From: Dehalococcoidia bacterium
Lineage (GTDB): Bacteria; Chloroflexota; Dehalococcoidia; DSTF01; WHTK01
DNA: 64,000 bases
Direction: 5' to 3'
Assembly (NCBI GenBank): GCA_035574915.1
Contig: DATLYJ010000078.1
Location: forward strand, 6,460-70,459
The position numbers and the translations under genes are program-made. Positions 6,373-44,061 of this stretch are shown in pieces (the first letter of the stretch is position 1; each line of letters starts with the position of its first letter). The notes beneath the pieces were generated by a model that was not told the origin of the DNA, made no database searches, and worked only from the letters and a program-made list of their open reading frames with translations.

Positions 6373-7449
6373 TCAGGCGCGATTGGCCCTTGCTCGGAAC
6401 CGCAAGAGCGCGAGAGCGGTTATCGTAGCCGCCGTAGCAGCGACGACGCCTGCGACGATGACCGCAGCGCCGTTGTCGCGGTCCGCAGCCGTGTCCGTTG
6501 CCGGCGGCGACAACGCCGACAGGTCGGTAGACGGCGCGGCCGCACGCGCTTCAGCCGTCCGCAGCGCATCCTCGAAGCGGCGATCGAACTCCGGTGTCGA
6601 TGCCCAGACGCGTGGCAGGGTCCCGGCGCGGCCGCTCCCCATCCCCTCCCAGATCCGGCCGCCTCGTTCTGCCGTCGGCGGCGCATAGTACATGAACGCC
6701 GGCGCGTGCCAGCTCCCCATCGAGGTGGGCGCGCTCACGTTGAGGCCGTAAGCGAAGGTGGCGCCGTCGATCAGGGCGTCCTCCAGCGGCGGACTCCCGA
6801 TCGCGGCCGCGAACTCCTCCAGCGGGAACTCGCCCGGATTCAGACGGCGCGCGGGAGCGCCGTCGGGGCCGATGCGCGGATCGAGTCCGCGTCGGTAGAC
6901 CGCGAGGGGGATGTTGAGTGACACGGGCGCAACGACAAGCTCCGCGAACGTCCCGGAGAAGACGTCCCACCAAGCCAGATCGAAGCCGCGACCATTAAGC
7001 GAGGCCATTACGACGCCCTTCGGCAGGACATCGACATTCGAGCGGGCGGCGTCCAGCGCCTTCTTGACGCCCGACCAACGTTCCGCGCCCTGCCAGATGG
7101 TGTCGTCGAGCTGGAGCCACGCGCCCGAGGCCGGGTTATGCACGAGCCGTGTCGCCGGATAGAGGTAGGCCAGCGGTTCGCCGCTGGCTGCCTCCGCCGC
7201 TGCCGCGAAAGGCCATGTGTCGTACAGCAGATAGGCCACGCCAGGCCACGAATCGGGCGGAGCCACCTCGAGGACATGCGGCCCCGGCATCTCCAGGTAG
7301 TCGTCCGTGTAGAAGTGCAGGGCGTGGTCGCCAAGATCGCCGCCGGTGAGGATGTAGCCGGGCGTCTTCGCCCAGACCTGCTCGGCCGGGGCGCACAAGG
7401 CTGCTACGGCGATGAGGAAGCTCCCGACTAGGGCGAGCCTGGTGTTCAT
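6373..7449 (-). CDS. secreted hypothetical protein with signal peptide and a C-terminal hydrophobic anchor plus basic tail
   Basis: Likely start MNTRLALVGSFLIAVAALCAPA (signal peptide). C-terminus AAVIVAGVVAATAATITALALL-RFRARANRA. Only 2 nt separate it from the upstream LuxR/PD40 gene. Confidence 0.5.
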   Translation of the reverse strand: MNTRLALVGSFLIAVAALCAPAEQVWAKTPGYILTGGDLGDHALHFYTDDYLEMPGPHVLEVAPPDSWPGVAYLLYDTWPFAAAAEAASGEPLAYLYPATRLVHNPASGAWLQLDDTIWQGAERWSGVKKALDAARSNVDVLPKGVVMASLNGRGFDLAWWDVFSGTFAELVVAPVSLNIPLAVYRRGLDPRIGPDGAPARRLNPGEFPLEEFAAAIGSPPLEDALIDGATFAYGLNVSAPTSMGSWHAPAFMYYAPPTAERGGRIWEGMGSGRAGTLPRVWASTPEFDRRFEDALRTAEARAAAPSTDLSALSPPATDTAADRDNGAAVIVAGVVAATAATITALALLRFRARANRA

Positions 7450-7451
7450 CG

Positions 7452-8834
7452 TCACTTGCCTCCGGGCGAGATCACGGCCTTCGCGCTGTCCTCCGTCCAG
7501 TCGCACTGGCCGCCCTGGAGGCCGGTGATTTGCTCCAGCACCACGGCGCCGGACTCGAGGTCGACGACCCGCTGGCCATAGGGCCGGTCGGCGACACGGC
7601 CCGTGACGCCCTGGTACCAGTAGAGGCCGTAGCGCCCGTTGGGCGAAGTGCAGAGCAGGCCCTGCGGGTCCGGCCCGGGGATACGCGACCCATCGCGAAG
7701 GTCGACCAGCGTACTAGGTTGGAAGGGTATCTCCGTACCGGTAAGCAGGACGCGGTCGGGGCCGGCCCAGCGCAACGGCGACCAGCGGACCGGAGGCTCG
7801 ATGCGGTAAAGCACGGCGCCGGTGACGGCGTCGAGCACTACGACGGCGCGCGGCTCGTCGGACACGCGGGCGCCTTCGACCGTTCGGGTCGCGGTAGCGA
7901 CGATGAGGCGCCGGCCGTCCGGCGAGAACTCGAGCTGCTGCAGCCAAGCCCCTCCTTCCTCCTGCCATACGAGGCTTCGCCCGGAGCCGTCGAGGCCGAT
8001 CACCTCCACGCGCAGGCTGCCGTCGCGGACGTCGCCGACGGCGATGCGGCCGGCGCTGGCGCTCACATCGACCATGCGCGTCGAAGTAGCGCGCGGGAGG
8101 ACCGGCGGCGGGCCGAGGTCGAGCAGCAGGCGCTTCTCGCCCGACGCCGGGTCCCACTCCCACAGCGCCTGGTTGCTCTCGACTGCGAGCGCCTTGCCCG
8201 CCGACTGGTCGATGTACAGGGCGCCCTGAGGCCTCGTGCCGAGGGCGTCGGCGACCAGCGCGCCGGTGGGATCGACGAGCACCATCTTGGAGCCCGCGTT
8301 CGAAAGGAGGCGGCCCGGCCCCAGCCATTGCATCAGGGCCCCGAAGGGCTGCATTTCGGTGGCCGTGGCAGCTGCGAGGTCGAAGACCCAGGACAGCGAC
8401 GGCCGCGGCGTCGGGGAGGGCACGGCGGTCGACAGTGGCGTCGAAGCCAGCGCGCCCGGCGCCGGCTGGCTGGAGGCTCCATCAAGCCCGTCGCGGCTGA
8501 AGAGAGGACTCGACAGCAGCAGCCACACTCCGACGACGGCCGCCGGGGCGAGGAGCGCAGCGCGGGCGAGCAGGCCAGCGAGCGGCCAGAGGCCGCGCCG
8601 CGCCTCGACGCGCTCACGCTGTTCACGCCACCAAGCGGCGAGGGCGTGGCGGTCGTCGAGGCCGGTCTCGCCCATGAGTTGGCTGACGTGCCACTTCGCG
8701 CCGTCTTGCGAAATGCCCAGCTCGCCGGCGATCTCGGCGTTCGACTTGCCCTCGAGCAGGGCATCGAGCACGCGCTCCTGCTGCGGCGTCGGCCGCCAGC
8801 GTCTCAACCAGTGAAAGCCCTCGCGCTGCCTCAC
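7452..8834 (-). CDS. membrane-anchored LuxR-family HTH regulator with extracytoplasmic PD40/TolB-like beta-propeller domain
   Basis: N-terminal GerE/LuxR HTH (QQERVLDALLEGKSNAEIAGELGISQDGAKWHVSQL), then a hydrophobic TM segment (LLAPAAVVGVWLLLSSP), then about 330 aa with a PD40-like repeat (EFSPDGRRLIV). GTG start. Confidence 0.7.
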   Translation of the reverse strand: MRQREGFHWLRRWRPTPQQERVLDALLEGKSNAEIAGELGISQDGAKWHVSQLMGETGLDDRHALAAWWREQRERVEARRGLWPLAGLLARAALLAPAAVVGVWLLLSSPLFSRDGLDGASSQPAPGALASTPLSTAVPSPTPRPSLSWVFDLAAATATEMQPFGALMQWLGPGRLLSNAGSKMVLVDPTGALVADALGTRPQGALYIDQSAGKALAVESNQALWEWDPASGEKRLLLDLGPPPVLPRATSTRMVDVSASAGRIAVGDVRDGSLRVEVIGLDGSGRSLVWQEEGGAWLQQLEFSPDGRRLIVATATRTVEGARVSDEPRAVVVLDAVTGAVLYRIEPPVRWSPLRWAGPDRVLLTGTEIPFQPSTLVDLRDGSRIPGPDPQGLLCTSPNGRYGLYWYQGVTGRVADRPYGQRVVDLESGAVVLEQITGLQGGQCDWTEDSAKAVISPGGK

Positions 8835-8913
8835 GCCGCCCCGCTACCCGCCACCGGAACCTGGAACCTGAGGACCTGTGGACCTCCGAACATCCGACCC
8901 TCCAGCCGGGAGC

Positions 8914-10179
8914 CTACTTACCGAGGCCGCCGATGCCCCGTGGCGGCCCCTCGGCCAGCTTCAGCGCCGTGGCTTCGTCGGTGCCCCAGGAAGCGGGGGT
9001 CATCTTCAGCGCCGTAACCGGCCAACTGTATCCGTCGTCGACGCGGATCGCCGCCACGCCGAGGTCGTGCGGCTCGCGCTTGGCCACGACGAAGCGGCCG
9101 CCCGGGGACCAGAAAACGAGGCAGCCGTCGCCGAGGAAGCGCAACTCCTTCGACGAGAGCGACTCGAGCAAGTAGAGGTTGTGCTCCTTGCGGTTGAGGC
9201 TGTAAGTCGAGAGCACCATCTGCGAGCCGTCCGGCGACCACTTCATCTCCCCCGCGTACCCCTCCCGCAGATAGTACGTCAGCGGTTCGCCCGAGCCGTC
9301 CGAGAGCGCGATGTGCATCACAAAGGGCCACGCGACGGGACTGAAGGCGATGCGGCTTCCGTCCGGCGACCACGAGATCGCCAGGCTGCCCGGCGCCCGT
9401 TGCCCGGGCGGCGACGACAGCAGCCGCCCGGCGTTCGCGACCAGCTGGACAACGCCTGCCCCGTCCACCGTAAGGAGCTGCCAGCCGAGCGCGTCGTCCT
9501 GGGCGAACGCGAGCCGGCGTCCGTCGGGTGACGGCACGAAGCCGGTTAACACGGACGCGACCTTATAGATGCCGCGGACGCTGCCGTCGCGGGCGAGCCA
9601 GAGGAGCGGCGTATCCGTGGCGGCATCGAGTGTGGCGAAGACAAGGCCGCCGTCGGAGGTCCAGGCGAACGCCGTGGCTCCCGCGCCCAGCGTGGTCACG
9701 GATCGAGTGGACGGCTCGACCAACATGATGCCGCCGTCATCGTCGAGTGCGGCAAGGACTTCGCCGACGGGCGACCAGGCGGCGTCTCTTAACCCGGCGG
9801 CGAGCTCGACCGGTTGCGGCGTCTGACCTTCGGCCGGCAGCGTGGCGTCCCAGAACAAGAGCTGGCAGGGCGTGTTCCCGAGGCAGTGCCGGAAGGCCTG
9901 CCAGCGTCCGCTCGCAGAGGTGGCCGGGCGATAGGTGTTCTCCTGGGCCCTGCCCAGTTCGGCGCCGTCTGGCGTGAATCGGTACAGGAGGTTCGATGAT
10001 CTCAGGACGATAACACCGTCCGCTGAGGGGTCGGGCACCACCTCATCGGGTTCGATGACCGTTACAGCAGCGGGCGCCGCGGGGTCGGGAGCGTCTCGGC
10101 GCACCGCGACATACACGCTCGCCAGGATGGCTGCGAGCGATACCAGGCTGCTGGCAAGCAGGAAGACTCTCCAGCGCAT
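8914..10179 (-). CDS. membrane-anchored PD40/TolB-like beta-propeller protein
   Basis: N-terminal TM (VFLLASSLVSLAAILASVYVAV); repeats SWSPDGSRIAF and KWSPDGSQMV; strong RBS AAAGAGGAGGG upstream. Confidence 0.7.
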   Translation of the reverse strand: MRWRVFLLASSLVSLAAILASVYVAVRRDAPDPAAPAAVTVIEPDEVVPDPSADGVIVLRSSNLLYRFTPDGAELGRAQENTYRPATSASGRWQAFRHCLGNTPCQLLFWDATLPAEGQTPQPVELAAGLRDAAWSPVGEVLAALDDDGGIMLVEPSTRSVTTLGAGATAFAWTSDGGLVFATLDAATDTPLLWLARDGSVRGIYKVASVLTGFVPSPDGRRLAFAQDDALGWQLLTVDGAGVVQLVANAGRLLSSPPGQRAPGSLAISWSPDGSRIAFSPVAWPFVMHIALSDGSGEPLTYYLREGYAGEMKWSPDGSQMVLSTYSLNRKEHNLYLLESLSSKELRFLGDGCLVFWSPGGRFVVAKREPHDLGVAAIRVDDGYSWPVTALKMTPASWGTDEATALKLAEGPPRGIGGLGK

Positions 10180-10332
10180 GACGGCCCTCCTCTTTAACGA
10201 CGTATCGTCGTGACGGCCATTATCACAGCGCCACCGGAAATGTCACTACCCTCGGGCCGGCTGGTCTGCTGGCCGGCTGGCCGCCCAGCGCCCGCCGTTG
10301 CCTCGCTGTAGGCGCCCTTCGGAAAGGGCGCG

Positions 10333-25696: not shown

Positions 25697-26725
25697 ATGT
25701 CAGAGTTCTTGCACACTCACGTCCGTCCCTTCGAGGTCCGGCCGGGGCAGACACCTTCGCAGCTCATGCACGGGCTGCACGGCACTTCCTTCCAGGCCCG
25801 CAACCTCGGCACCGCCACGCGCATCTGGAAGCGCATGATGGAGGACGAGATCACCATCTTCCTCGGCATCGCCGGGGCGATGGTCCCCGCCGGCATGCGC
25901 AACGTGATCCGGTTCCTCATCGAGAACCGGATGGTCGACGTCATCGTGAGCACGGGCGCGAACATGTTCCACGATGTCTACGAGACTCTCGGCAAGCCTC
26001 ACTGGCAGACGGTGCCGGGAGGGCACGACATTGACCTCGGCAAGCACCGCATCAACCGCTTCTACGACGTCCTCGCGCCGGAGAGCGACTTCGCCGACGC
26101 CGAAGAGTTCGTCGTCGCCTTCGCGCAGACGCTGGAGGAGAACAAGCCGATCTCTACGCGCGAGTACTTCCGCCGTCTGGGCGAGGCCCTGATCCCGATG
26201 GCGAGCGAGGACGGCATCCTGACTGCCGCGGCAAAGCACGGCGTGCCGATCTACAGCCCTGCCCTCGGCGACAGCGTCCACGGCCTCGCCATCGCCACCG
26301 GGCGCGTGCGCAGCGGCCACCGCCTGGTGTTCGACATCATCGGCGACGTGCTCGAGACGTCGCACCTGGCGCTGACGGCGAAGGGTACGGGCGTGATTTA
26401 CATCGGCGGCGGGACGCCGAAGAACTTCATCCAGCAGGCAGAGGTGGCGGCCTACATCTACGCCCGCGAGCTTCCCGGCCACAAGTACGGCATCCAGGTG
26501 ACGATGGACCAGCCACAATGGGGCGGGCTCTCCGGCTGCACCTTCGAAGAAGCCCAGTCCTGGCGCAAGATCGCCCCGGATGCCGACTTCGTGACCGTGA
26601 ACGTCGAGGCCTCCGTCGCGGTGCCGCTGATCGTGAGCGCGCTGGCGGACGAACTGGGTGAGAAGCTGCGCGACCGCAAGCTCCCCGAGCTGGACTTTGG
26701 CAGCAGCACCCGCGGCGAACGGTAG
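25697..26725 (+). CDS. deoxyhypusine synthase-like protein (DHS family; possible homospermidine-synthase-like)
   Basis: 342 aa with DHS-family motifs (IFLGIAGAMVPAGMR, STGANMFHD, YIGGGTPKNF) and an NAD-binding fold. Confidence 0.8.
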   Translation: MSEFLHTHVRPFEVRPGQTPSQLMHGLHGTSFQARNLGTATRIWKRMMEDEITIFLGIAGAMVPAGMRNVIRFLIENRMVDVIVSTGANMFHDVYETLGKPHWQTVPGGHDIDLGKHRINRFYDVLAPESDFADAEEFVVAFAQTLEENKPISTREYFRRLGEALIPMASEDGILTAAAKHGVPIYSPALGDSVHGLAIATGRVRSGHRLVFDIIGDVLETSHLALTAKGTGVIYIGGGTPKNFIQQAEVAAYIYARELPGHKYGIQVTMDQPQWGGLSGCTFEEAQSWRKIAPDADFVTVNVEASVAVPLIVSALADELGEKLRDRKLPELDFGSSTRGER

Positions 26726-26792
26726 ACGTTATTATACTGTTGGCCGTAAAAGTATAGTAACTGCGAGAACTAATAAAGGGAGCTTTGGTAGC

Positions 26793-28001
26793 TTGAACCG
26801 TAAGGCCTTTGCGGCACCAGCGGGTCGTCTAGTCTGGACCCCTGGCGGTTACTGGGCGTTTGTGCCGGAGCGCTTGAGCCGGCAAACTTCGCTGGATCCC
26901 GACGTCATCTATCTCCTTTCGGAGGCTGATCGCCACCTGGGCGAACTTGCGGGAATGGCAAGGGTGCTGCCGAACCCGCAACTGCTGATTGCGCCGCTAA
27001 GCCAGCGCGAGGCCGTGCTGTCCTCCAGAATCGAAGGCACTCAGGCCTCGCTCTCAGACCTCGCTGTATTCGAAGCTGCCGGCCGCGCGATCCCGGGTCT
27101 GAGCTCGGACGTGGTGGAGGTGCTGAACTACAGGCGTGCAATGTCCTTCGGCCTGGAGCGTCTCGCGGAACTCCCACTTAGCCTGCGGCTCGTGAGAGAG
27201 CTGCATGCCCATCTGATGAGCGGCGTACGTGGACAGGAAAAGGCGCCGGGAGAGTTCCGGAGCTCACAGAATTGGATCGGGTCGCCCGGCAGCAGTCTGG
27301 AAGAAGCCACCTATGTACCGCCACCACACACGGAGATGCATGACTGCCTGGCTGACTGGGAGCGCTTCCTGCACGAGGAGACCGTTACTCCGCCGCTCAT
27401 TCGTTGTGCCCAGATGCACTATCAATTTGAAGCAATACACCCGTTCCTGGATGGAAACGGTAGAGTGGGCCGGCTGCTGATAACACTCTTCCTGTGCACC
27501 CTCGGCAGGCTCCCGAGCCCCGCCCTCTACCTCAGCCCGTACTTCGAGCGTCACCGCACCGAGTACTACGACCACCTGCAAGCAGTAAGCGAGCGCAGCG
27601 AGTGGCAGAACTGGTTCAGATTCTTCGCCAGGGGCGTCATAATACAGTCCCGTGACGCCCTTGCCCGCTTCGACCGATTACTCAAGCTCTACGAGGACTC
27701 GCGTCGCCAGTTGCTATCGTTTAGGGCCGCACCCTCGGTGCTTCGGTTACTGGAAGCTCTCTTCACCAGTCCCGCGGTTACCGTAGCATCCGCGGCTGCC
27801 ACGTTGGGCGTGACGCCGGTAAGCGCCACTCACGCCATCGACACCCTTATCGAGCGTGGGATCCTTCAGGAGATAACTGGGCGCCGAAGGGATCGCGTGT
27901 TCTTGGCGCGGACCATACTGCGAGCCATTGAAGATCCGACCGAGGTCGAACGAGAAGACGCTAATGGGCCTACGCTATTTAAGCCAGGAGCCTCCCCCTA
28001 A
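26793..28001 (+). CDS. Fic-family protein (class II: N-terminal inhibitory helix, C-terminal winged HTH)
   Basis: Fic motif HPFLDGNGRVGR; inhibitory motif SSRIEGT (S-x-x-x-E-G); C-terminal wHTH. TTG start with an AAAGGGA RBS. The gene sits in a local low-GC patch. Confidence 0.75.
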   Translation: MNRKAFAAPAGRLVWTPGGYWAFVPERLSRQTSLDPDVIYLLSEADRHLGELAGMARVLPNPQLLIAPLSQREAVLSSRIEGTQASLSDLAVFEAAGRAIPGLSSDVVEVLNYRRAMSFGLERLAELPLSLRLVRELHAHLMSGVRGQEKAPGEFRSSQNWIGSPGSSLEEATYVPPPHTEMHDCLADWERFLHEETVTPPLIRCAQMHYQFEAIHPFLDGNGRVGRLLITLFLCTLGRLPSPALYLSPYFERHRTEYYDHLQAVSERSEWQNWFRFFARGVIIQSRDALARFDRLLKLYEDSRRQLLSFRAAPSVLRLLEALFTSPAVTVASAAATLGVTPVSATHAIDTLIERGILQEITGRRRDRVFLARTILRAIEDPTEVEREDANGPTLFKPGASP

Positions 28002-28315: not shown

Positions 28316-28516
28316 CCTCCCAGGCGAAGTGGCGATGGCCGAGCCAGCGCAATCCGCGCGCGCTCGTGACGGGCGGCAACCCAAGCCAAGCCACGTCTCC
28401 GGCGTTCTCGCACCACGGAGGTAGAAGGCCAGCTTCGCTTCTGGCAGGTGTCTACGCCGACCCCATGGCGCTCCTGACCTGTGGCCCCTTCAGTCGATAA
28501 TCGAATAAGAGAACGG

Positions 28517-29326
28517 ATGTACAGCAAGCCAGCACCTCACCTCGGGGGCCTCTTGCTCCTGGCCGTCTTGCTCTCGCTCGCGTGCGAGGGCACGAGTCCC
28601 GTTAGGACTTCATCGGACACTGGAACGCCTGCCGCTACCTCACCCGCACCGCCAGCGGTTGCGCCGGCACCGACGGCAACGACGACGCCCGGCCGGCAGC
28701 CCGCGCGCGTCCTCAGGGTCGTGGACGGCGACACGATCGACGTGCAGCTCGACGGCGCGACCGTGCGCGTGCGCTACATCGGCATTGACGCGCCCGAGAC
28801 GGTCGACCCCAGACGGCCGGTGGGCTGCTTCGGGGCGGAGGCATCGGCCCGCAACCGGGCGCTGGTCGAGGGCAGGCAGGTCGAGCTGGAGAAGGACGTG
28901 AGCGAGGCGGACAGCTTCGGCAGGCTGCTGCGCTACGTCTACGTCGACGGGGCCATGGTCAACGAGACGCTAGTGCGGGAAGGCTACGCCCAGGTCGCCA
29001 CCTTCCCGCCGGACGTGAAGTACGTGGACCGCTTCCTGGCGGCGCAGAGGGAGGCGCGGGAGGCGAACCGTGGCCTCTGGGGCGCCTGCGTGGCGGCCAC
29101 ACCCACCCTGGCGCCCGGCGGCAGCGCTTGCCCCCAGGGCTGTGCGGTGCCGCCGCGCGGCTGCGTCATCAAGGGCAACATCAGCCAGGGCACGGGCGAA
29201 AAGATCTACCACGTGCCCGGCGGCGAGTTCTACGACCAGACGGTCATCGACCCGGCCCGCGGCGAGCGCTGGTTCTGCACCGAGGCCGAGGCCGTTGCCA
29301 ATGGCTGGCGCAAGAGCCTGCGGTAG
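28517..29326 (+). CDS. thermonuclease (SNase-like) lipoprotein with C-terminal Cys-rich GNIS...GEKIYHVPG domain
   Basis: Signal and lipobox LLSLAC; SNase core (VVDGDTIDV...RYIGIDAPE...GRLLRYVYVDG); C-terminal KGNISQGTGEKIYHVPGGEFYDQT...WFCTEAEAVANGWR. Confidence 0.8.
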   Translation: MYSKPAPHLGGLLLLAVLLSLACEGTSPVRTSSDTGTPAATSPAPPAVAPAPTATTTPGRQPARVLRVVDGDTIDVQLDGATVRVRYIGIDAPETVDPRRPVGCFGAEASARNRALVEGRQVELEKDVSEADSFGRLLRYVYVDGAMVNETLVREGYAQVATFPPDVKYVDRFLAAQREAREANRGLWGACVAATPTLAPGGSACPQGCAVPPRGCVIKGNISQGTGEKIYHVPGGEFYDQTVIDPARGERWFCTEAEAVANGWRKSLR

Positions 29327-29329
29327 CGT

Positions 29330-30934
29330 TCAGCTTCCCTGCCACCAGGCGAAGTAGCGATCCCAGGGGATGTACCCATAGAAGCCAAACCAGAGCGCCG
29401 GGTCTTGAGCGGAGCGCGGCCACGAGAGGTCCGTGACTTTGACGGGAGTGCCGTCAGTGACGGGCAGCAGCCAGAGCGAAGCCACGTCCTCGGCGTTGTC
29501 GATGCGGGCGAAGAGCAGGCAGGAGCCATCGCGCGACCACAGGGGCCGCTCGTCGCGGTAGGCCGGGTCGTCCGTCAGCTGCCGCTTGTTGGCCCCGTCT
29601 GCGTCCATGACCCAGATGCGCCGCTGGCCCGCACCCTGCCTCGCGTCGTCGCCACCGCCGACTGGCCCTATGTCAGGCCCCGCGACGTAGGCCACCTGGC
29701 GCCCATCCGGTGACCACTCGGGCGAGAAGGCAGCGGTGTCGGTGCCCGTGAGAAAGGTCACAGCTCCGCTGGCCGTATCGACGACAGCGATGCGTTTGCG
29801 GGTCCATGTCTCGCGGCCAAACCCCTCTGTGAGGGCGAGTGCAGTCCTGGAGGCGAACTGACCTATCAGTTCGTCGCGGGTCAACGCCACGACGCCGAGC
29901 CTGCGTGGCGCACCACCGCCGACAGAAATGGCGTAAAGGGGCAGGCCATCAGCCGCGATGGACGCAGAGAACTGAGGATTCAATGAAGAGAGGATCGACG
30001 ACCCGTCCGGCGTCCAGCGGAGCACCCCGACCTGCCCGCTCTCGGGCCCGGCATAGGCATCGTTCGCGTACAGCAGCTGCGCATTCGTCCCGTCGGCGTT
30101 CGCCACCCACAGGCTCGATAGGCGGCTATACGGCTCCTGTGAGCGGTTCAACGGTCCGTCAGCCGCGTACGCCAGCTTGGCGCCGTCCGGGCTCCAGTAG
30201 GGGCCTCGGATCGTCGTGCCAGCGGCAGCGCCAGGGAGCAAGGCCCGGATGCTGATGGTGCGAAGCAAGGCGCCGGTCGGCGCCTCAAGCCTGAAGCCGC
30301 CGGCGGGGTCGACGCAGGCGAGCTCGTCGGCGACCGGCGACCAGGCGACGCAGCCCGGTGCGGCGCGCCGGCGGCCGCCGTCCGCTCTGACCACGGTTTC
30401 GCCAGCGAGTAGCCACTCCCCGGACGGCGACCAGCGCGGGTAGGACATCTGCCCGTTGGTCGTGAGACGCACGGGCCTTCCGCCCGGGAGAGACATGACC
30501 CAAAGGTCGCCGTTCCGGATATAGGCGAGCTTGCCGAGACTGCCAGGTTCGCCGGTCGGGCCTGACTCCTGTGGGCCAAGGTCCAGGAGCAGCGCCAGGG
30601 CGAGCAAGAGTGCCGCGCCAACTACAACCAGGGCGCCAGCACCGGCCGCCACCTTCGCCGCCGCGCCGGGCGTTGCCTTCCTGAAGAGCAGAGTCAAGGG
30701 CGCCAGCGCGCCGAGTCGACGAGCCTCTCGCTCTGGCGTCCAGGCGGCGGCTTGTTCCCGGCTCGAAACGCCGAGCTTCGTGATGATCTCTGACACGTGG
30801 TACTTGGCGCCGTCGAGCGTGAGGCCGAGGCGGCGGGCAATCTGCTCATTGGTCAGCCCCTGCCGCAGCAACTCCAGCACTTGCCACTGACGCGGCGTGA
30901 GGATGTCAGGGTGTCTTGGGCGCCCGCGTCTCAT
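29330..30934 (-). CDS. membrane-anchored LuxR-family HTH regulator with PD40/TolB-like beta-propeller domain (paralogue of 7452..8834)
   Basis: N-terminal HTH (LTPRQWQVLELLRQGLTNEQIARRLGLTLDGAKYHVSEI); TM (ALVVVGAALLLALALLL); PD40 repeats (PRWSPSGEWLL, YWSPDGAKLAY, RWTPDGSSIL, EWSPDGRQVAY). Confidence 0.7.
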   Translation of the reverse strand: MRRGRPRHPDILTPRQWQVLELLRQGLTNEQIARRLGLTLDGAKYHVSEIITKLGVSSREQAAAWTPEREARRLGALAPLTLLFRKATPGAAAKVAAGAGALVVVGAALLLALALLLDLGPQESGPTGEPGSLGKLAYIRNGDLWVMSLPGGRPVRLTTNGQMSYPRWSPSGEWLLAGETVVRADGGRRRAAPGCVAWSPVADELACVDPAGGFRLEAPTGALLRTISIRALLPGAAAGTTIRGPYWSPDGAKLAYAADGPLNRSQEPYSRLSSLWVANADGTNAQLLYANDAYAGPESGQVGVLRWTPDGSSILSSLNPQFSASIAADGLPLYAISVGGGAPRRLGVVALTRDELIGQFASRTALALTEGFGRETWTRKRIAVVDTASGAVTFLTGTDTAAFSPEWSPDGRQVAYVAGPDIGPVGGGDDARQGAGQRRIWVMDADGANKRQLTDDPAYRDERPLWSRDGSCLLFARIDNAEDVASLWLLPVTDGTPVKVTDLSWPRSAQDPALWFGFYGYIPWDRYFAWWQGS

Positions 30935-31043
30935 CGCGGATCAATGTACCCGCGTGGGCTGCGAATTACTCTACCCGGACTGGCTTACCACCTCCTGGTG
31001 CTAGGCAGGATCGCCGCGAGAGTGGCTGCCGGCGGCCTGCCGG

Positions 31044-31586
31044 CTACGGCGCCGGCGCCTCCGCCGCAGATCGGGCCCGGACGCCGATGGTGCGGGCGTC
31101 GCGCCACCACTCACCCTCTGCGATTACCTCCGGCCGCTGCTGCCGAGAGGCGAGGTCGCTCAGCGGCGTCCCTGTCTGGGGGTGAATCAACCGCGGGTCG
31201 AGGTCGAGGAGCGGGAAGAGCACGAACGCCCGCTCGCCGAGCCGCGGGTGCGGCACCGTCAGCGCCTCGCTCTCGAGCACTAGGTCGCCGTAGAGGGCGA
31301 TGTCGATGTCTATGGGCCGAGGGGCCCAGCGTGGAGCGGGGCGCCGGCCGATCATGTGCTCGACCCGCTTGGCGTGCGCCAGCAGGAGGTCCGCGCCCAG
31401 GCCGGTGACGACGCGGCAGGCAGCGTTGTAAAAGTCCGGCTGGTCGGAGCCGTCAGCCGGCGGCGATTGGTACAGCCGCGACACCGCCTCGACCCGCACG
31501 AGTGGACCCAGCATTCGCAGCGCCAGCGCGATGTTAGCCGCGCGGTTGCCGAGGTTGGAGCCGAGGGACAGGTAGATGCCGGCCAT
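31044..31586 (-). CDS. folK: 2-amino-4-hydroxy-6-hydroxymethyldihydropteridine pyrophosphokinase
   Basis: MAGIYLSLGSNLG...ALYGDLV...PHPRLGERAFVLFPL is the HPPK signature. Confidence 0.85.
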   Translation of the reverse strand: MAGIYLSLGSNLGNRAANIALALRMLGPLVRVEAVSRLYQSPPADGSDQPDFYNAACRVVTGLGADLLLAHAKRVEHMIGRRPAPRWAPRPIDIDIALYGDLVLESEALTVPHPRLGERAFVLFPLLDLDPRLIHPQTGTPLSDLASRQQRPEVIAEGEWWRDARTIGVRARSAAEAPAP

Positions 31587-31655
31587 GGTGCAGAGTGCAG
31601 AGTAACCATCGCGGCGTGCAGGCGGAAGCCGCCCTCGTCCGTGCGCCATGCGCGC

Positions 31656-32489
31656 CTACGCCCGCCAGCCTCGGACGATGGCGTCGGCCATGCGCGCGAC
31701 CTCCACCATCTCGGCGACATCGTGGACGCGCACGATGTCGGCGCCGTTGGCGATGGCAAGGGCAACGGTGGCTGCGGTCCCAAACAGGCGTCCCTCGACA
31801 GGCTTGTCGAGCACCGCGCCGATGGTGGACTTGCGGGACGTGCCCACGAGCAGGGGCAGACCGAGGTCGCGCAGCTCACCCAGACGCCGTAGCATCTCCA
31901 GGTTCTGTTCCGGACTCCAGCCGAAGCCGAACCCGGGGTCGGCGATCAATTTCTCGCGCGCCAACCCCGAACGCCCGGCGATGTGCAGGCTCTCCTTTAG
32001 CCCGCGGCGGATGTCACCGATCACGTCCTCGAACTCCCGCCCGCGCTGGTTATGCATCACCACCGCCGGCACCCCGCGCTGGGCGGCGAGCACTGCCAGC
32101 GCCGGGTCGTGGCGAAAACCCCAGATGTCGTTGAGCAGCGAGGCGCCGGCGTCGAGCGCCGCCTCCGCGACCTCGCGCCGGTAGGTGTCGATGCTGACAG
32201 GCAGGCCGACGCGCTTCACGATGCGCTCGATCGCCGGCACGACGCGCCGGATCTCCTGGGCGGCGCTGATCTCCTCGAACCCCGGGCGGGTGGACTGGCC
32301 GCCTACGTCCAGCAAGTCCGCCCCCTCTTCCGCGAAGCGCTCCGCCTGGCGCAGCGCATCCTCGGCGCGCGCCAGGCCATCGCCGGAAAAAGACTCGGGC
32401 GAGACGTTGATTATGCCCATGACGTACGTCCGCGCACCCCACACGAAGGTGCGGCCGCCAATCTCCAGGCTCCGGGGCGCGTCTGAGGT
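31656..32489 (-). CDS. folP: dihydropteroate synthase
   Basis: YVMGIINVSPESFSGDG...DVGGQSTRPG...SIDTY...LLNDIWG. The tracker's 380-aa ORF has about 100 aa of upstream Arg/Pro-rich junk; start assigned at MTSDAPRSL. Confidence 0.85.
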   Translation of the reverse strand, partial: TSDAPRSLEIGGRTFVWGARTYVMGIINVSPESFSGDGLARAEDALRQAERFAEEGADLLDVGGQSTRPGFEEISAAQEIRRVVPAIERIVKRVGLPVSIDTYRREVAEAALDAGASLLNDIWGFRHDPALAVLAAQRGVPAVVMHNQRGREFEDVIGDIRRGLKESLHIAGRSGLAREKLIADPGFGFGWSPEQNLEMLRRLGELRDLGLPLLVGTSRKSTIGAVLDKPVEGRLFGTAATVALAIANGADIVRVHDVAEMVEVARMADAIVRGWRA

Positions 32490-32539
32490 CATGGAAACAG
32501 GATAGAGAACAGGGAGCACTTCTCCGCTATCCTCAGGCC

Positions 32540-33532
32540 ATGGTCTTCGAACGAATGCCGGCCGACCCCGCCTTCGCGGGCATACCGACCTTCCTGAAGT
32601 TGCCACACGTGGCCAGCGCCGAGCAGCTCGCGGCGGAGAGGCCGGATGTCGTGGTCGTCGGTGCGCCCTTCGATATGGCAGTCGTGAACCGGCCAGGCGC
32701 CAGGTACGGGCCACGAGCGATCCGCCAGGCGTCAAACCTGGGCCGGGCCGTCTACCACCTCGAGCTCGAGGTGCAGCCGACTCGCGTCCTGCGTGCATTC
32801 GACTACGGCGATGCCGCCATCGTGCCTTCGAGCATAGAGCGCTCGCACGAGGCGATCCGTCAGAAGGTCGCGGAGGTGGCCGCGCTTGGCGCCGTGCCTG
32901 TCGTCCTCGGCGGCGACCACTCGATCACGCTGCCGGCCGCGACGGCCGTCGCGGACGCGGTCGGACGCGGGAAAGTCGGCATCGTCCACTTCGACGCCCA
33001 CGCTGACACGGCGAACGACAGTTGGGGCGTCCTGCTCGCCCACGGCACGCCGATGCGGCGGCTGATCGAGAGCGGCGCGGTGCCCGGGCCGAATTTCGTG
33101 CAGGTGGGCCTGCGCGGCTACTGGCCGCCGCCAGACGTGTTCGAGTGGATGCGGGCCCAGGGCATGCGCTGGCACTTCATGCACGAGATCGAAGCCCGCG
33201 GCTTCGACACCGTCCTCCAGGAGGCGATCGAACAGGCGCTGGACGGCCCGGAGGCGATCTACCTCTCGCTTGACATCGACGTCCTCGACCCCGCCTTCGC
33301 GCCGGGCACCGGCACGCCCGAGCCGGGCGGCCTGACGTCGGTGCAGCTGCTGCGCGCGGTGCGCCGGATCGTGGAGCGCGTGCGGCTGGTGGGCATGGAC
33401 GTGGTCGAGGTCGCGCCGGCATACGACGGGCCCGGACAGATTACGGCCGAGGTGGCGCACCGGCTGGTGCTGGAGGCGCTCAGCGCCCTGGCCAGGAAGG
33501 CTTCCCCGAAGCCGAGCGACGCGAGCCCGTAG
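32540..33532 (+). CDS. speB: agmatinase / arginase-family ureohydrolase (second paralogue)
   Basis: GGDHSIT, DAHADT and SLDIDVLDP motifs; 330 aa. Confidence 0.85.
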   Translation: MVFERMPADPAFAGIPTFLKLPHVASAEQLAAERPDVVVVGAPFDMAVVNRPGARYGPRAIRQASNLGRAVYHLELEVQPTRVLRAFDYGDAAIVPSSIERSHEAIRQKVAEVAALGAVPVVLGGDHSITLPAATAVADAVGRGKVGIVHFDAHADTANDSWGVLLAHGTPMRRLIESGAVPGPNFVQVGLRGYWPPPDVFEWMRAQGMRWHFMHEIEARGFDTVLQEAIEQALDGPEAIYLSLDIDVLDPAFAPGTGTPEPGGLTSVQLLRAVRRIVERVRLVGMDVVEVAPAYDGPGQITAEVAHRLVLEALSALARKASPKPSDASP

Positions 33533-43514: not shown

Positions 43515-43770
43515 TGGTGCGCAGACCCGGCCAAGGGCGGCCTCCGCACCGGCGGGGCGGCTGCAGCAGGCGCGCTGGCCGCGATGGGCCGCGCACCCGT
43601 CATAGTCATCATCGGCTCGTGGGCCTCGAGCTTTTGCTGTTCCCCGGACTTACGTGCTCGAACGGCCATAAATCCGTGTAAACACGCAGGCATTTGGTCG
43701 ACCGGGCAGTCAAAATCTGGCAGAGTCCAGGGCACGACCGCCTTGAGTACAAGTTCAGGAGGGGATCGAA

Positions 43771-44061
43771 ATGTACGGGACTGTTGCTAGATTCACGCTC
43801 AAACCCGGCATGGAGGCGAAGCTCACCGAGGAGATGAAGTCCTACGAGAGCCTGAACATCGACGGGCACATCTCGACGACCGTCTACCGGATGGACGACA
43901 ACCCGAACGAGTTCTACATGGCCGTGATCTTCCGCGACAAGGCGTCCTACCAGAAGAACGCGGACGACCCGGAGCAGGACAAGCGCTACCAGCGCCTCCG
44001 GGCCCTGCTCGCCGCGGACCCGGAGTGGCACGACGGCGAGATCATCTACAGCGGCAAGTAG
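43771..44061 (+). CDS. small ABM-like (antibiotic biosynthesis monooxygenase fold) protein
   Basis: 96 aa (MYGTVARFTLKPGMEAKLTEEM...EFYMAVIFRDKASYQKNADDPE). Assignment by fold-like pattern only. Confidence 0.4.
   Translation: MYGTVARFTLKPGMEAKLTEEMKSYESLNIDGHISTTVYRMDDNPNEFYMAVIFRDKASYQKNADDPEQDKRYQRLRALLAADPEWHDGEIIYSGK

Follow-up and report, generated by a model that had tools for sequence, protein, structure and literature searches.

A predicted single-pass LuxR-type regulator with a beta-propeller ectodomain in a Dehalococcoidia genome, its Chloroflexota family and the promoter box that accompanies it

The gene at positions 29330-30934 of a 64,000-nucleotide (nt) stretch of Dehalococcoidia DNA (contig DATLYJ010000078.1 of assembly GCA_035574915.1, positions 6,460 to 70,459 of the forward strand; hereafter the window, to which all positions refer) encodes a protein, here called p1, which combines an N-terminal LuxR-type DNA-binding head, a predicted single transmembrane (TM) helix and a C-terminal beta-propeller. 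The protein belongs to a large family whose genes share a 15-nt promoter box at fixed spacing from the start codon, and this box is found almost exclusively on family genes. On the basis of sequence and structure prediction, p1 is read as a single-pass regulator of ToxR topology, likely to bind its own box and to activate its own promoter, a reading to which a probability of about 0.6 is attached. Taken by itself, the p1 gene is an ordinary, already annotated LuxR-type open reading frame (ORF), identical (100%) to an NCBI protein named 'LuxR C-terminal-related transcriptional regulator [Dehalococcoidia bacterium]' from a metagenome-assembled genome (MAG); its family, by comparison with known systems, represents a form of a known type of regulator that has not been described before, and the accompanying cis-element is unusually clear and open to test. 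The initial annotation of the window had described p1 as the second, unlinked paralogue of another regulator, here called p2.

The combination of a LuxR-type helix-turn-helix (HTH), a TM segment and a PD40 propeller, as first proposed for p1, was confirmed by the ORF, Pfam, hydropathy and AlphaFold2 (AF2) prediction (Table 1). The ATG lies two codons downstream of an in-frame stop, and the ORF of 534 amino acids (aa) is real. Pfam recognises GerE at residues 11-65 (PF00196, 53.6 bits against a cutoff of 23.5), PD40 (46.1 bits against 20.9) and DPPIV_N, and a phmmer comparison of the HTH with PDB sequences matched NarL (1je8, E 3.6e-11) as well as DosR, VraR, ComA and GerE. The AF2 model, built with 35 homologues (predicted local distance difference test, pLDDT, 88.1), contains a four-helix HTH (residues 14-64), a TM helix (92-117) and an all-beta domain (134-531); the HTH helices (14-24, 29-36, 40-54 and 59-64) have pLDDT above 90, and confidence is low in the linkers flanking the TM helix (69-98 and 119-122). 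Ahead of the HTH, residues 2-7 form an AT-hook motif, with an R-G-R-P core and basic flanks. Hydropathy analysis identified a single strong hydrophobic segment at approximately residues 95-118 (Kyte-Doolittle 2.79 at residues 99-117), and because the residues before it are basic and those after it acidic, the predicted topology is N-in, C-out, with the HTH in the cytoplasm and the propeller outside the membrane.

The ectodomain adopts a predicted PD40/TolB-like propeller fold, with PD40 above its cutoff and, as the best solved structures in Foldseek, TolB and the propellers of S9 peptidases (E 4e-13 to 1e-11). Two of its motifs are conserved in the 35 homologues, namely YRDERPLWS (residues 459-467, 29534-29560), in which E462 is invariant, and the aromatic tail WFGFYGYIPWDRYFAWW (residues 515-534, 29330-29389); possible roles for them are in a ligand site and in closing the propeller.

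The family was delimited by scanning prokaryotic genomes, one for each species, with the pattern [YF]HV[SA]EI[LI][STG]K, which returned 243 matches and 181 confirmed loci. The best 80 of these all originate from Chloroflexota MAGs, mostly of Dehalococcoidia but also of Tepidiformaceae and Anaerolineaceae, and some MAGs hold several loci (8 in Dino_bin34, 6 in CAYOSF01, 4 in CAVYJE01). A further scan of metagenomes for heads of the form DG[AV]KWHV[SG] yielded 88 confirmed loci. A hidden Markov model of the head module was of no use for counting, since its 459,748 hits at E <=0.001 among 1.84 billion representative proteins were swamped by generic or multi-copy LuxR proteins. The 181 confirmed loci, the Chloroflexota origin of the best 80 and the presence of 17 paralogues in one MAG support the proposal of the initial annotation that an expanded, lineage-specific family of TM regulators exists.

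The 86 extracted ORFs encode proteins of 106-817 aa. Their N-terminus, M(x)RRGRPxHPD[IV]LTPRE, hardly varies, residue 45-46 marks the beginning of the recognition helix, and roughly 72 of them have a TM segment at around residues 80-100. The MAG Dino_bin34 contains 17 distinct paralogous 5' cassettes, the heads of which share 65% amino-acid identity, whereas their fourfold-degenerate sites agree at a frequency of 0.307, against 0.303 expected from composition. With synonymous sites at random expectation, the duplications are therefore ancient and the head has been held by purifying selection; recent duplication or gene conversion as the origin of the conserved 5' cassette was ruled out on the same ground. 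Local amplification also occurs, as at L007 (WHTK01000022.1), where a 9.5-kb stretch carries seven family heads on its two strands, most with a box of their own; some ORFs of this hotspot, no longer than 76-139 aa, are possibly fragments or pseudogenes.

The ectodomains vary across the family and are mostly beta-propellers. In a Pfam census of 85 members, GerE was found in 85, PD40 in 31 and DPPIV_N in 22; a few members each carry BNR/Sortilin, WD40, DUF5050, Gmad1 or oligogalacturonate-lyase-type propellers, and the ectodomains of the remainder have no Pfam match. P0134 represents a Kelch version. The p1-type propeller also occurs elsewhere, either alone with an N-terminal anchor or fused to a zf-HC2 anti-sigma domain (P0063, 41% identity) or to a C-terminal SNase domain (P0109); the zf-HC2 fusion argues that this propeller is a transferable extracytoplasmic sensor module. 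At the other extreme are short soluble members of 106-133 aa, consisting of the AT-hook and HTH without a TM segment, of which eight were found in eight MAGs (L043, L044, L048, L049, L055, L060, L064 and L070). Five of the eight end in -AA, and a ClpP gene follows directly in all seven examined downstream (L049 was left out); by analogy, these clpP-linked proteins may be the Chloroflexota counterparts of ClgR.

The promoter box has the form GGGTAG(T/G)GTAATTCG and spans 15 nt. The motif GTAATTC occurs in the 160 nt upstream of 49-50 of 82 family ORFs and in none of the coding controls. At least 10 of the 15 consensus positions are matched in 78 of the 82 upstream regions, and in 74 of those 25-30 nt separate the box, which covers about -40 to -26, from the start codon. 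In 72 of these 74 a TAnnnT hexamer is found 6-11 nt upstream of the start codon; its distance from the box is exactly 13 nt in 60 genes and 14 nt in 12. No Shine-Dalgarno-like sequence was found in any of the 74. Given this proximity of TAnnnT to the ATG and the lack of a Shine-Dalgarno sequence, the mRNA is probably leaderless or nearly so, and the layout is that of a housekeeping-sigma promoter. The reading of GGGTAG as the -10 element of a sigma-B/F-type promoter (GGGTAT-like) was rejected: it would leave a leader of 28-30 nt without a Shine-Dalgarno sequence, TAnnnT is fixed at 13-14 nt, and p2-type promoters have a canonical GTGACA, a 16-nt spacer and TGTGATAAT.

The association of the box with the family is nearly exclusive. 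In 601 kb of loci, a 21-nt position weight matrix (PWM) found 95 sites of at least 14 bits, against approximately 2 in shuffled sequences; 78 precede ORFs found by the pattern and, of the remaining 17, at least 11 stand before additional family genes that the pattern had missed, which brings the number upstream of family genes to about 90. The boxes closest to the consensus (15/15 or 14/15) belong to the eight short soluble members. Three strong boxes (18.8-19.5 bits) are not obviously placed before family genes (L010 2948-2968, -; L067 2929-2949, +; L003 5791-5811, +), one being 20 nt upstream of a gene for a 636-aa acyltransferase-3-like membrane protein and one 73 nt upstream of a gene for a 304-aa secreted protein; the genes behind these three boxes are candidate regulon members. 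Within the window, a weak box-like site GGGCAGTCAAAATC (43701-43721, +) lies about 50 nt upstream of an ORF (43771-44061, +) encoding a 96-aa protein of the ABM family (antibiotic biosynthesis monooxygenase-like) with a good Shine-Dalgarno sequence; its score of 13.4 bits is within the chance range, and it was not accepted as a family box.

Under the reading preferred here, p1 would be transcribed from the housekeeping-type promoter described above and would present to the cytoplasm its 70 N-terminal residues, comprising the RGRP AT-hook and the NarL-like LuxR/GerE HTH, followed by a linker of approximately 25 residues, the TM helix and, as the putative sensor outside the membrane, the 400-residue TolB/DPPIV-like PD40 propeller. 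The recognition helix would contact the GGGTAG half-site, which is similar to the NarL heptamer, in the major groove, and the AT-hook the adjacent TAATT tract in the minor groove, placing the protein at a class-II-like position beside sigma region 4; activation from this position would give positive feedback once the propeller is occupied. We infer that the head is the binder of the box because the two co-occur and covary; activation rather than repression, the ligand of the propeller and targets beyond the gene itself belong to the inferred part of the model as well.

An A/T run is present in the box for 50 of 57 heads with the RGRP hook and absent for 53 of 59 heads without it; individual genes follow the same rule, since L130, with a hook and a KWHV helix, has the box GGGTAGGGAAATTC, and L010_3066, in which the hook has been lost (HGRS), has also lost the tract (GGGTAGGCAAACGAG). 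The GGGTAG core, by contrast, is common to all head types, all of which keep the GAK[YW]HV recognition helix. The NarL heptamer is TACYYMT, which resembles CTACCC, the reverse complement of the box core. A precedent for the contact proposed for the AT-hook is provided by WhiB7, whose RGRP motif, defined as an AT-hook, binds an A/T tract beside the -35 element, including that of its own promoter (PMC10245118).

Several points weigh against this reading. The covariation of hook and A/T run is largely a contrast between two or three clades and is phylogenetically confounded. LuxR/NarL domains usually bind inverted repeats as dimers, and the p1-type box is asymmetric, with a single half-site. Near-identical recognition helices in up to 17 paralogues per genome imply the same DNA target for every sensor, an odd arrangement for independent channels, and the box stands before almost no gene outside the family, so that no regulon is visible. 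Finally, the short soluble members adjacent to clpP, with their best-consensus boxes, could be the real binders.

This last point can be developed into an alternative in which a short soluble member encoded upstream of clpP reads the box as master regulator, p1 retains its architecture and sensor role, and the TM paralogues form the regulon of the soluble protein or compete with it. One box over many paralogues fits one common regulator; the eight soluble members have the best boxes, the seven examined downstream are each followed by a ClpP gene, and some MAGs that hold a soluble member also hold a TM member (L055 with L069, L043 with L065). The -AA terminus of five of them recalls the ClpP-degraded Streptomyces activators ClgR and PopR (PMC9775585). 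The strong purifying selection on the AT-hook and recognition helix of the TM members is nevertheless hard to explain without DNA binding, head type and box variant covary also in subfamilies in which no soluble member was seen, and the window contains neither clpP nor a short soluble member. We regard a soluble master regulator as a serious though unlikely alternative; the short soluble members could also be the evolutionary founders of the family.

A second alternative retains the box as the target of p1 but has the protein act after release from the membrane. The anchored form would be inactive, gain or loss of a ligand at the propeller would induce site-1/site-2 cleavage, and the liberated AT-hook-HTH fragment of about 90 residues would activate at the box until turned over by Clp. 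The same head also occurs naturally in soluble proteins linked to clpP, and the linkers on both sides of the TM helix (69-98, 119-122) are those predicted by AF2 with low confidence. The same propeller is carried by the zf-HC2 anti-sigma factor P0063, and anti-sigma factors of this class typically signal by regulated intramembrane proteolysis. On the other side, neither the window nor the orthologous loci contain a protease gene linked to p1, no conserved cleavage motif was identified, and characterised transmembrane regulators, among them ToxR, CadC and the TM-LuxR proteins of Eggerthella lenta, act from the membrane (PMC10269533, PMC9734109). By analogy with these systems, proteolytic release appears less likely than action from the membrane, and as an account of p1 it is distinctly improbable.

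The comparison of p1 with p2 bears both on the paralogy originally proposed and on the existence of the family as such. The recognition-helix peptides LDGAKYHVSEI and QDGAKWHVSQL are present in p1 and p2, respectively, and the HTH of p2 also exceeds the GerE cutoff (28.7 bits against 23.5). A BLASTP alignment of the two proteins is limited to the N-terminal 72 aa (42% identity, E 2e-12), with no significant similarity between the C-terminal halves; the similarity is not of low complexity, so the doubt that it might be confined to such regions does not apply. The p1 HTH is no more distant from the DNA-binding domain of Escherichia coli NarL, to which it is 45% identical over 55 aa, and the identity between p1 and p2 is thus nothing special. 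The AAW motif after the HTH, initially taken as a shared distinguishing mark, is also present in NarL (EAAVW) and is therefore a generic feature of NarL-type domains. The ectodomain of p2 has no match to PD40 or to any other Pfam family outside the HTH, and database relatives number 14 for p2 and 551 for p1. In the AF2 model of p2 (pLDDT 77, 9 sequences), the HTH is followed by a long helix, a disordered linker rich in Pro and an all-beta domain (residues 148-456), which in Foldseek resembles generic beta-propellers (YVTN, WD40, TolB, DPPIV). The claim of a shared architecture consequently holds at the level of predicted fold but not for PD40, and the claim of paralogy holds as a distant relationship of the head module, not as close paralogy with the same PD40 ectodomain.

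Neither overall identity nor the AAW motif supports a specific link between p1 and p2, which rests instead on the DGAK[YW]HVS signature, the bridging chimeras and the GGGTAG promoter box. The K-[YW]-H-V-S signature falls on the positions of the base-contacting residues K188, V189 and K192 of NarL. Among the chimeras, P0012 and P0017 place a p2-type head on a p1-type propeller, and L130 combines an RGRP head with a KWHV helix. A comparison of upstream regions for a shared operator, as the initial annotation had suggested, was the most informative test, with the GGGTAG core present at both transcription units. GGGTAG was further found at a fixed distance upstream of 58 of 68 DG[AV]KWHV[SG] heads of the p2 type and of a third type, and of 0 of 44 coding controls, with a 3' extension of GGGTAGTGAC(A) for p2-type and P0012-type heads and of (ATCTTTACCA)TCGGGTAGGG for the third, large type. 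That p1 and p2 are unrelated LuxR-type genes with a generic GerE HTH in common and no specific family, an idea to which their identity to each other (42%, against 45% between p1 and NarL), the AAW of NarL, the dissimilar ectodomain sequences and the breadth of the HTH profile (459,748 proteins) would lend themselves, is very improbable in view of their common unusual layout (N-terminal HTH, one TM helix, propeller outside), the signature at the NarL contact positions, the chimeras that bridge both groups and the box abutting the -35 element of both units. The two proteins are best described as representatives of two anciently diverged subfamilies with only the head module in common.

The third subfamily (L098-L131 and others, from the metagenome loci) has heads of the form WTPRQREVLDLL...DGAKWHVSEI...AAEYWR without an RGRP hook. 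Its upstream element, ATCTTTACCATCGGGTAGGG, contains a short inverted repeat, TACC-N4-GGTA, which may be a dimer site replacing the hook and half-site.

The p2 gene is the second of a three-gene operon (6373-10251, -) with a near-consensus promoter consisting of GGGTA-GTGACA, a 16-nt spacer and TGTGATAAT. No box lies directly upstream of p2 itself; the box and layout before the operon recur upstream of orthologous gene pairs in L084 and L085, and the box is slightly altered in L089. The product of the third gene has no Pfam match and is not conserved in related loci. With its membrane-anchored propeller partner, the operon resembles the ToxR/ToxS and VtrA/VtrC co-component pairs.

With a GerE DNA-binding domain and a TM region in one protein, p1 is, by its predicted domains, a transmembrane transcriptional regulator (TTR) as defined by Demey et al. 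(2023; PMC10269533). In that census, GerE is the third most common DNA-binding domain of TTRs (4943, 9.8%) and 321 TTRs contain PD40, one of the arrangements being Trans_reg_C,PD40,PD40; a combination of GerE and PD40 had no match in the part of the supplement searched, in which comma formatting may hide matches. Like ToxR, CadC and TcpP, p1 is, by its predicted topology, one polypeptide in which a single TM helix joins an N-terminal DNA-binding domain in the cytoplasm to a C-terminal sensor on the outside, with no phosphorelay. Unlike these, its head is a NarL-like GerE four-helix HTH behind an AT-hook rather than an OmpR-type winged helix, its sensor is a propeller of 7-8 blades, and its family, which has as many as 17 paralogues in a genome and shares a single promoter box and leaderless layout, has so far been seen only in Chloroflexota. 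There is no Trans_reg_C match in p1, which thus shares the topology of the ToxR family proper but not its membership.

The activators DadR, HcdR and CadR of E. lenta (PMC9734109) are likewise membrane proteins of the LuxR/GerE type, massively expanded in one lineage (83 in one strain), with a conserved DNA-binding domain and divergent sensors, and autoregulation has been hinted at for DadR (PMC9734109). They differ in having an N-terminal sensor of 10-12 TM segments and a C-terminal HTH and in being encoded beside the enzyme genes that they control, whereas p1 has an N-terminal HTH, a single TM helix and a soluble-type ectodomain. The closest solved DNA-binding domain is the C-terminal domain of NarL (PDB 1je8, 1a04), with which p1 shares LTPRE, the N of the turn, the K-x-H-V helix and EAAxW. 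p1 lacks the receiver domain of NarL, has Y/W and S at the positions of NarL V189 and K192, and gains the N-terminal AT-hook; its proposed site is a single half-site with an A/T tract instead of the NarL 7-2-7 inverted repeat. WhiB7 (PMC10245118) resembles p1 in its RGRP motif, in the A/T tract at the -35 region of a housekeeping-sigma promoter and in the presence of this arrangement at the regulator's own promoter. WhiB7, however, is a soluble Fe-S protein bound to sigma region 4, with a C-terminal hook and an A/T tract upstream of -35, whereas the hook of p1 precedes the HTH and its A/T tract lies at about -31 to -28.

The ectodomain of p1 has its best fold matches in TolB and in S9 propellers (DPPIV, prolyl tripeptidyl peptidase), with which it shares PD40 repeats, yet it belongs to neither group. 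The TolB model TIGR02800 scores 60.8 bits against a cutoff of 343.15, matching part of the propeller, and there is no TolB N-terminal domain; p1 ends at residue 534 with the last propeller strand and has no S9 catalytic domain. Pfam also found no zf-HC2 anti-sigma domain in p1, whereas P0063 has one. In the literature searched, no precedent was found for an N-terminal AT-hook-HTH head on a single-pass protein, for a Chloroflexota-wide expansion with interchangeable propeller ectodomains, for a conserved bipartite box on leaderless promoters or for clpP-linked soluble relatives.

The position of p1 after folP-folK and convergent with a thermonuclease gene, as initially described, agrees with the coordinates (Table 1). 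In four other MAGs (L001, L004, L006 and L058) p1 orthologues likewise have the folate genes upstream; at all four loci the family gene retains a box promoter of its own, and at three a further gene intervenes. The more distant relatives P0003 and P0012 stand in unrelated neighbourhoods. The folate genes were treated as conserved backbone rather than as partners. A functional link between p1 and the thermonuclease is unsupported, with no SNase gene near any of 160 related loci, and no conserved target gene was found near the family loci examined. The fusion of a p1-type propeller to an SNase domain in P0109 is curious, given the convergent SNase gene beside p1. The folP ORF has an Arg/Pro-rich N-terminal extension of about 100 aa, with Pterin_bind starting from residue 127, and its true start is probably internal. 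Further genes flanking the folate genes encode a deoxyhypusine-synthase-family protein (25697-26725), a Fic/DOC protein with an HTH (26658-28001) and an arginase/agmatinase-family protein (32540-33532, +); the first and the last may belong to polyamine metabolism.

Table 1. Location of p1, p2, their promoter elements and adjacent genes in the window.
Feature	Position	Strand	Basis or remarks
p1 coding sequence, 534 aa: AT-hook, LuxR/GerE HTH, one TM helix, PD40 beta-propeller	29330..30934	-	ORF, Pfam, AF2
AT-hook-like RGRP core, codons 2-7 (RRGRPR), at the extreme N-terminus	30914..30931	-	R3, G4, R5 and P6 at least 90% conserved in 85 members
GerE/NarL-type HTH, residues 11-65; recognition helix DGAKYHVSEIITKL; N29, H46, V47 and R59 invariant in the family	30740..30904	-	Pfam, AF2, alignment
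Predicted single TM helix, residues ~92-118; basic residues before, acidic after	30581..30661	-	Hydropathy, AF2
Predicted extracytoplasmic TolB/DPPIV-like PD40 beta-propeller, residues 134-531; ~30 strands, six WSPDG-like repeats	29342..30535	-	Pfam, AF2, Foldseek
Family promoter box GGGTAGAGTAATTCG, 14/15 match to consensus GGGTAGTGTAATTCG	30962..30976	-	Sole strong PWM match of the window (22.1 bits)
-10-like hexamer TACATT, 13 nt after the box, 8 nt before the p1 ATG, no Shine-Dalgarno sequence	30943..30948	-	Promoter layout
p2, 460 aa: LuxR HTH (DGAKWHVSQL), TM segment, Pro-rich linker, divergent beta-propeller; without RGRP hook	7452..8834	-	Pfam, AF2, Foldseek
TM-anchored PD40 propeller gene without HTH, first gene of the p2 operon	8914..10179	-	Pair with p2 conserved in L084, L085, L089, L093
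Third gene of the p2 operon; ATG (7449) 2 nt past the p2 stop, GGAGG 9 nt upstream	6373..7449	-	Signal peptide and C-terminal TM anchor
Variant box GGGTAGTGACATTTC including -35-like GTGACA, upstream of the PD40-p2 operon	10237..10251	-	15-nt box identical in L084, L085
Extended -10 TGTGATAAT of the PD40-p2 operon promoter, followed by a ~40-nt leader with Shine-Dalgarno sequence AAGAGGAGGG	10219..10227	-	Promoter layout
folK (HPPK), upstream of p1	31044..31649	-	Pfam
folP (Pterin_bind), upstream of p1	31656..32798	-	Pfam
Secreted thermonuclease (SNase), convergent, ends 3 nt from p1	28481..29326	+	Pfam

Hardly any regulator has been characterised in Dehalococcoidia and related Chloroflexota, organisms that abound in marine, soil and subsurface environments and for the most part have not been cultured. 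The family of p1, which reaches 17 copies in a single genome, may be one of the main routes by which these bacteria sense the outside. A larger scheme can be outlined tentatively, and as a whole it remains rather doubtful: a previously undescribed signalling network of Dehalococcoidia and other Chloroflexota with dozens of sensors per genome, swappable and mostly propeller-type ectodomains, one AT-hook and monomeric HTH head, one bipartite box on leaderless genes and mutual as well as self feedback, which would be descended from, and coupled to, a clpP-adjacent, ClgR-like soluble regulator ending in -AA. The family also offers a testable DNA target, a 15-nt box at a fixed position in a leaderless layout, with the HTH proposed to occupy GGGTAG and the AT-hook TAATT, and these properties make the pair of head and box directly testable in vitro or in a heterologous host. 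If the head binds the box, it could provide a compact, membrane-anchored biosensor scaffold with swappable ectodomains. The characterised TTRs reviewed are either of the OmpR type (ToxR, CadC, TcpP) or polytopic (the TM-LuxR proteins of E. lenta), and to these the family of p1 would add a single-pass class of LuxR-type transmembrane regulators with an N-terminal HTH.

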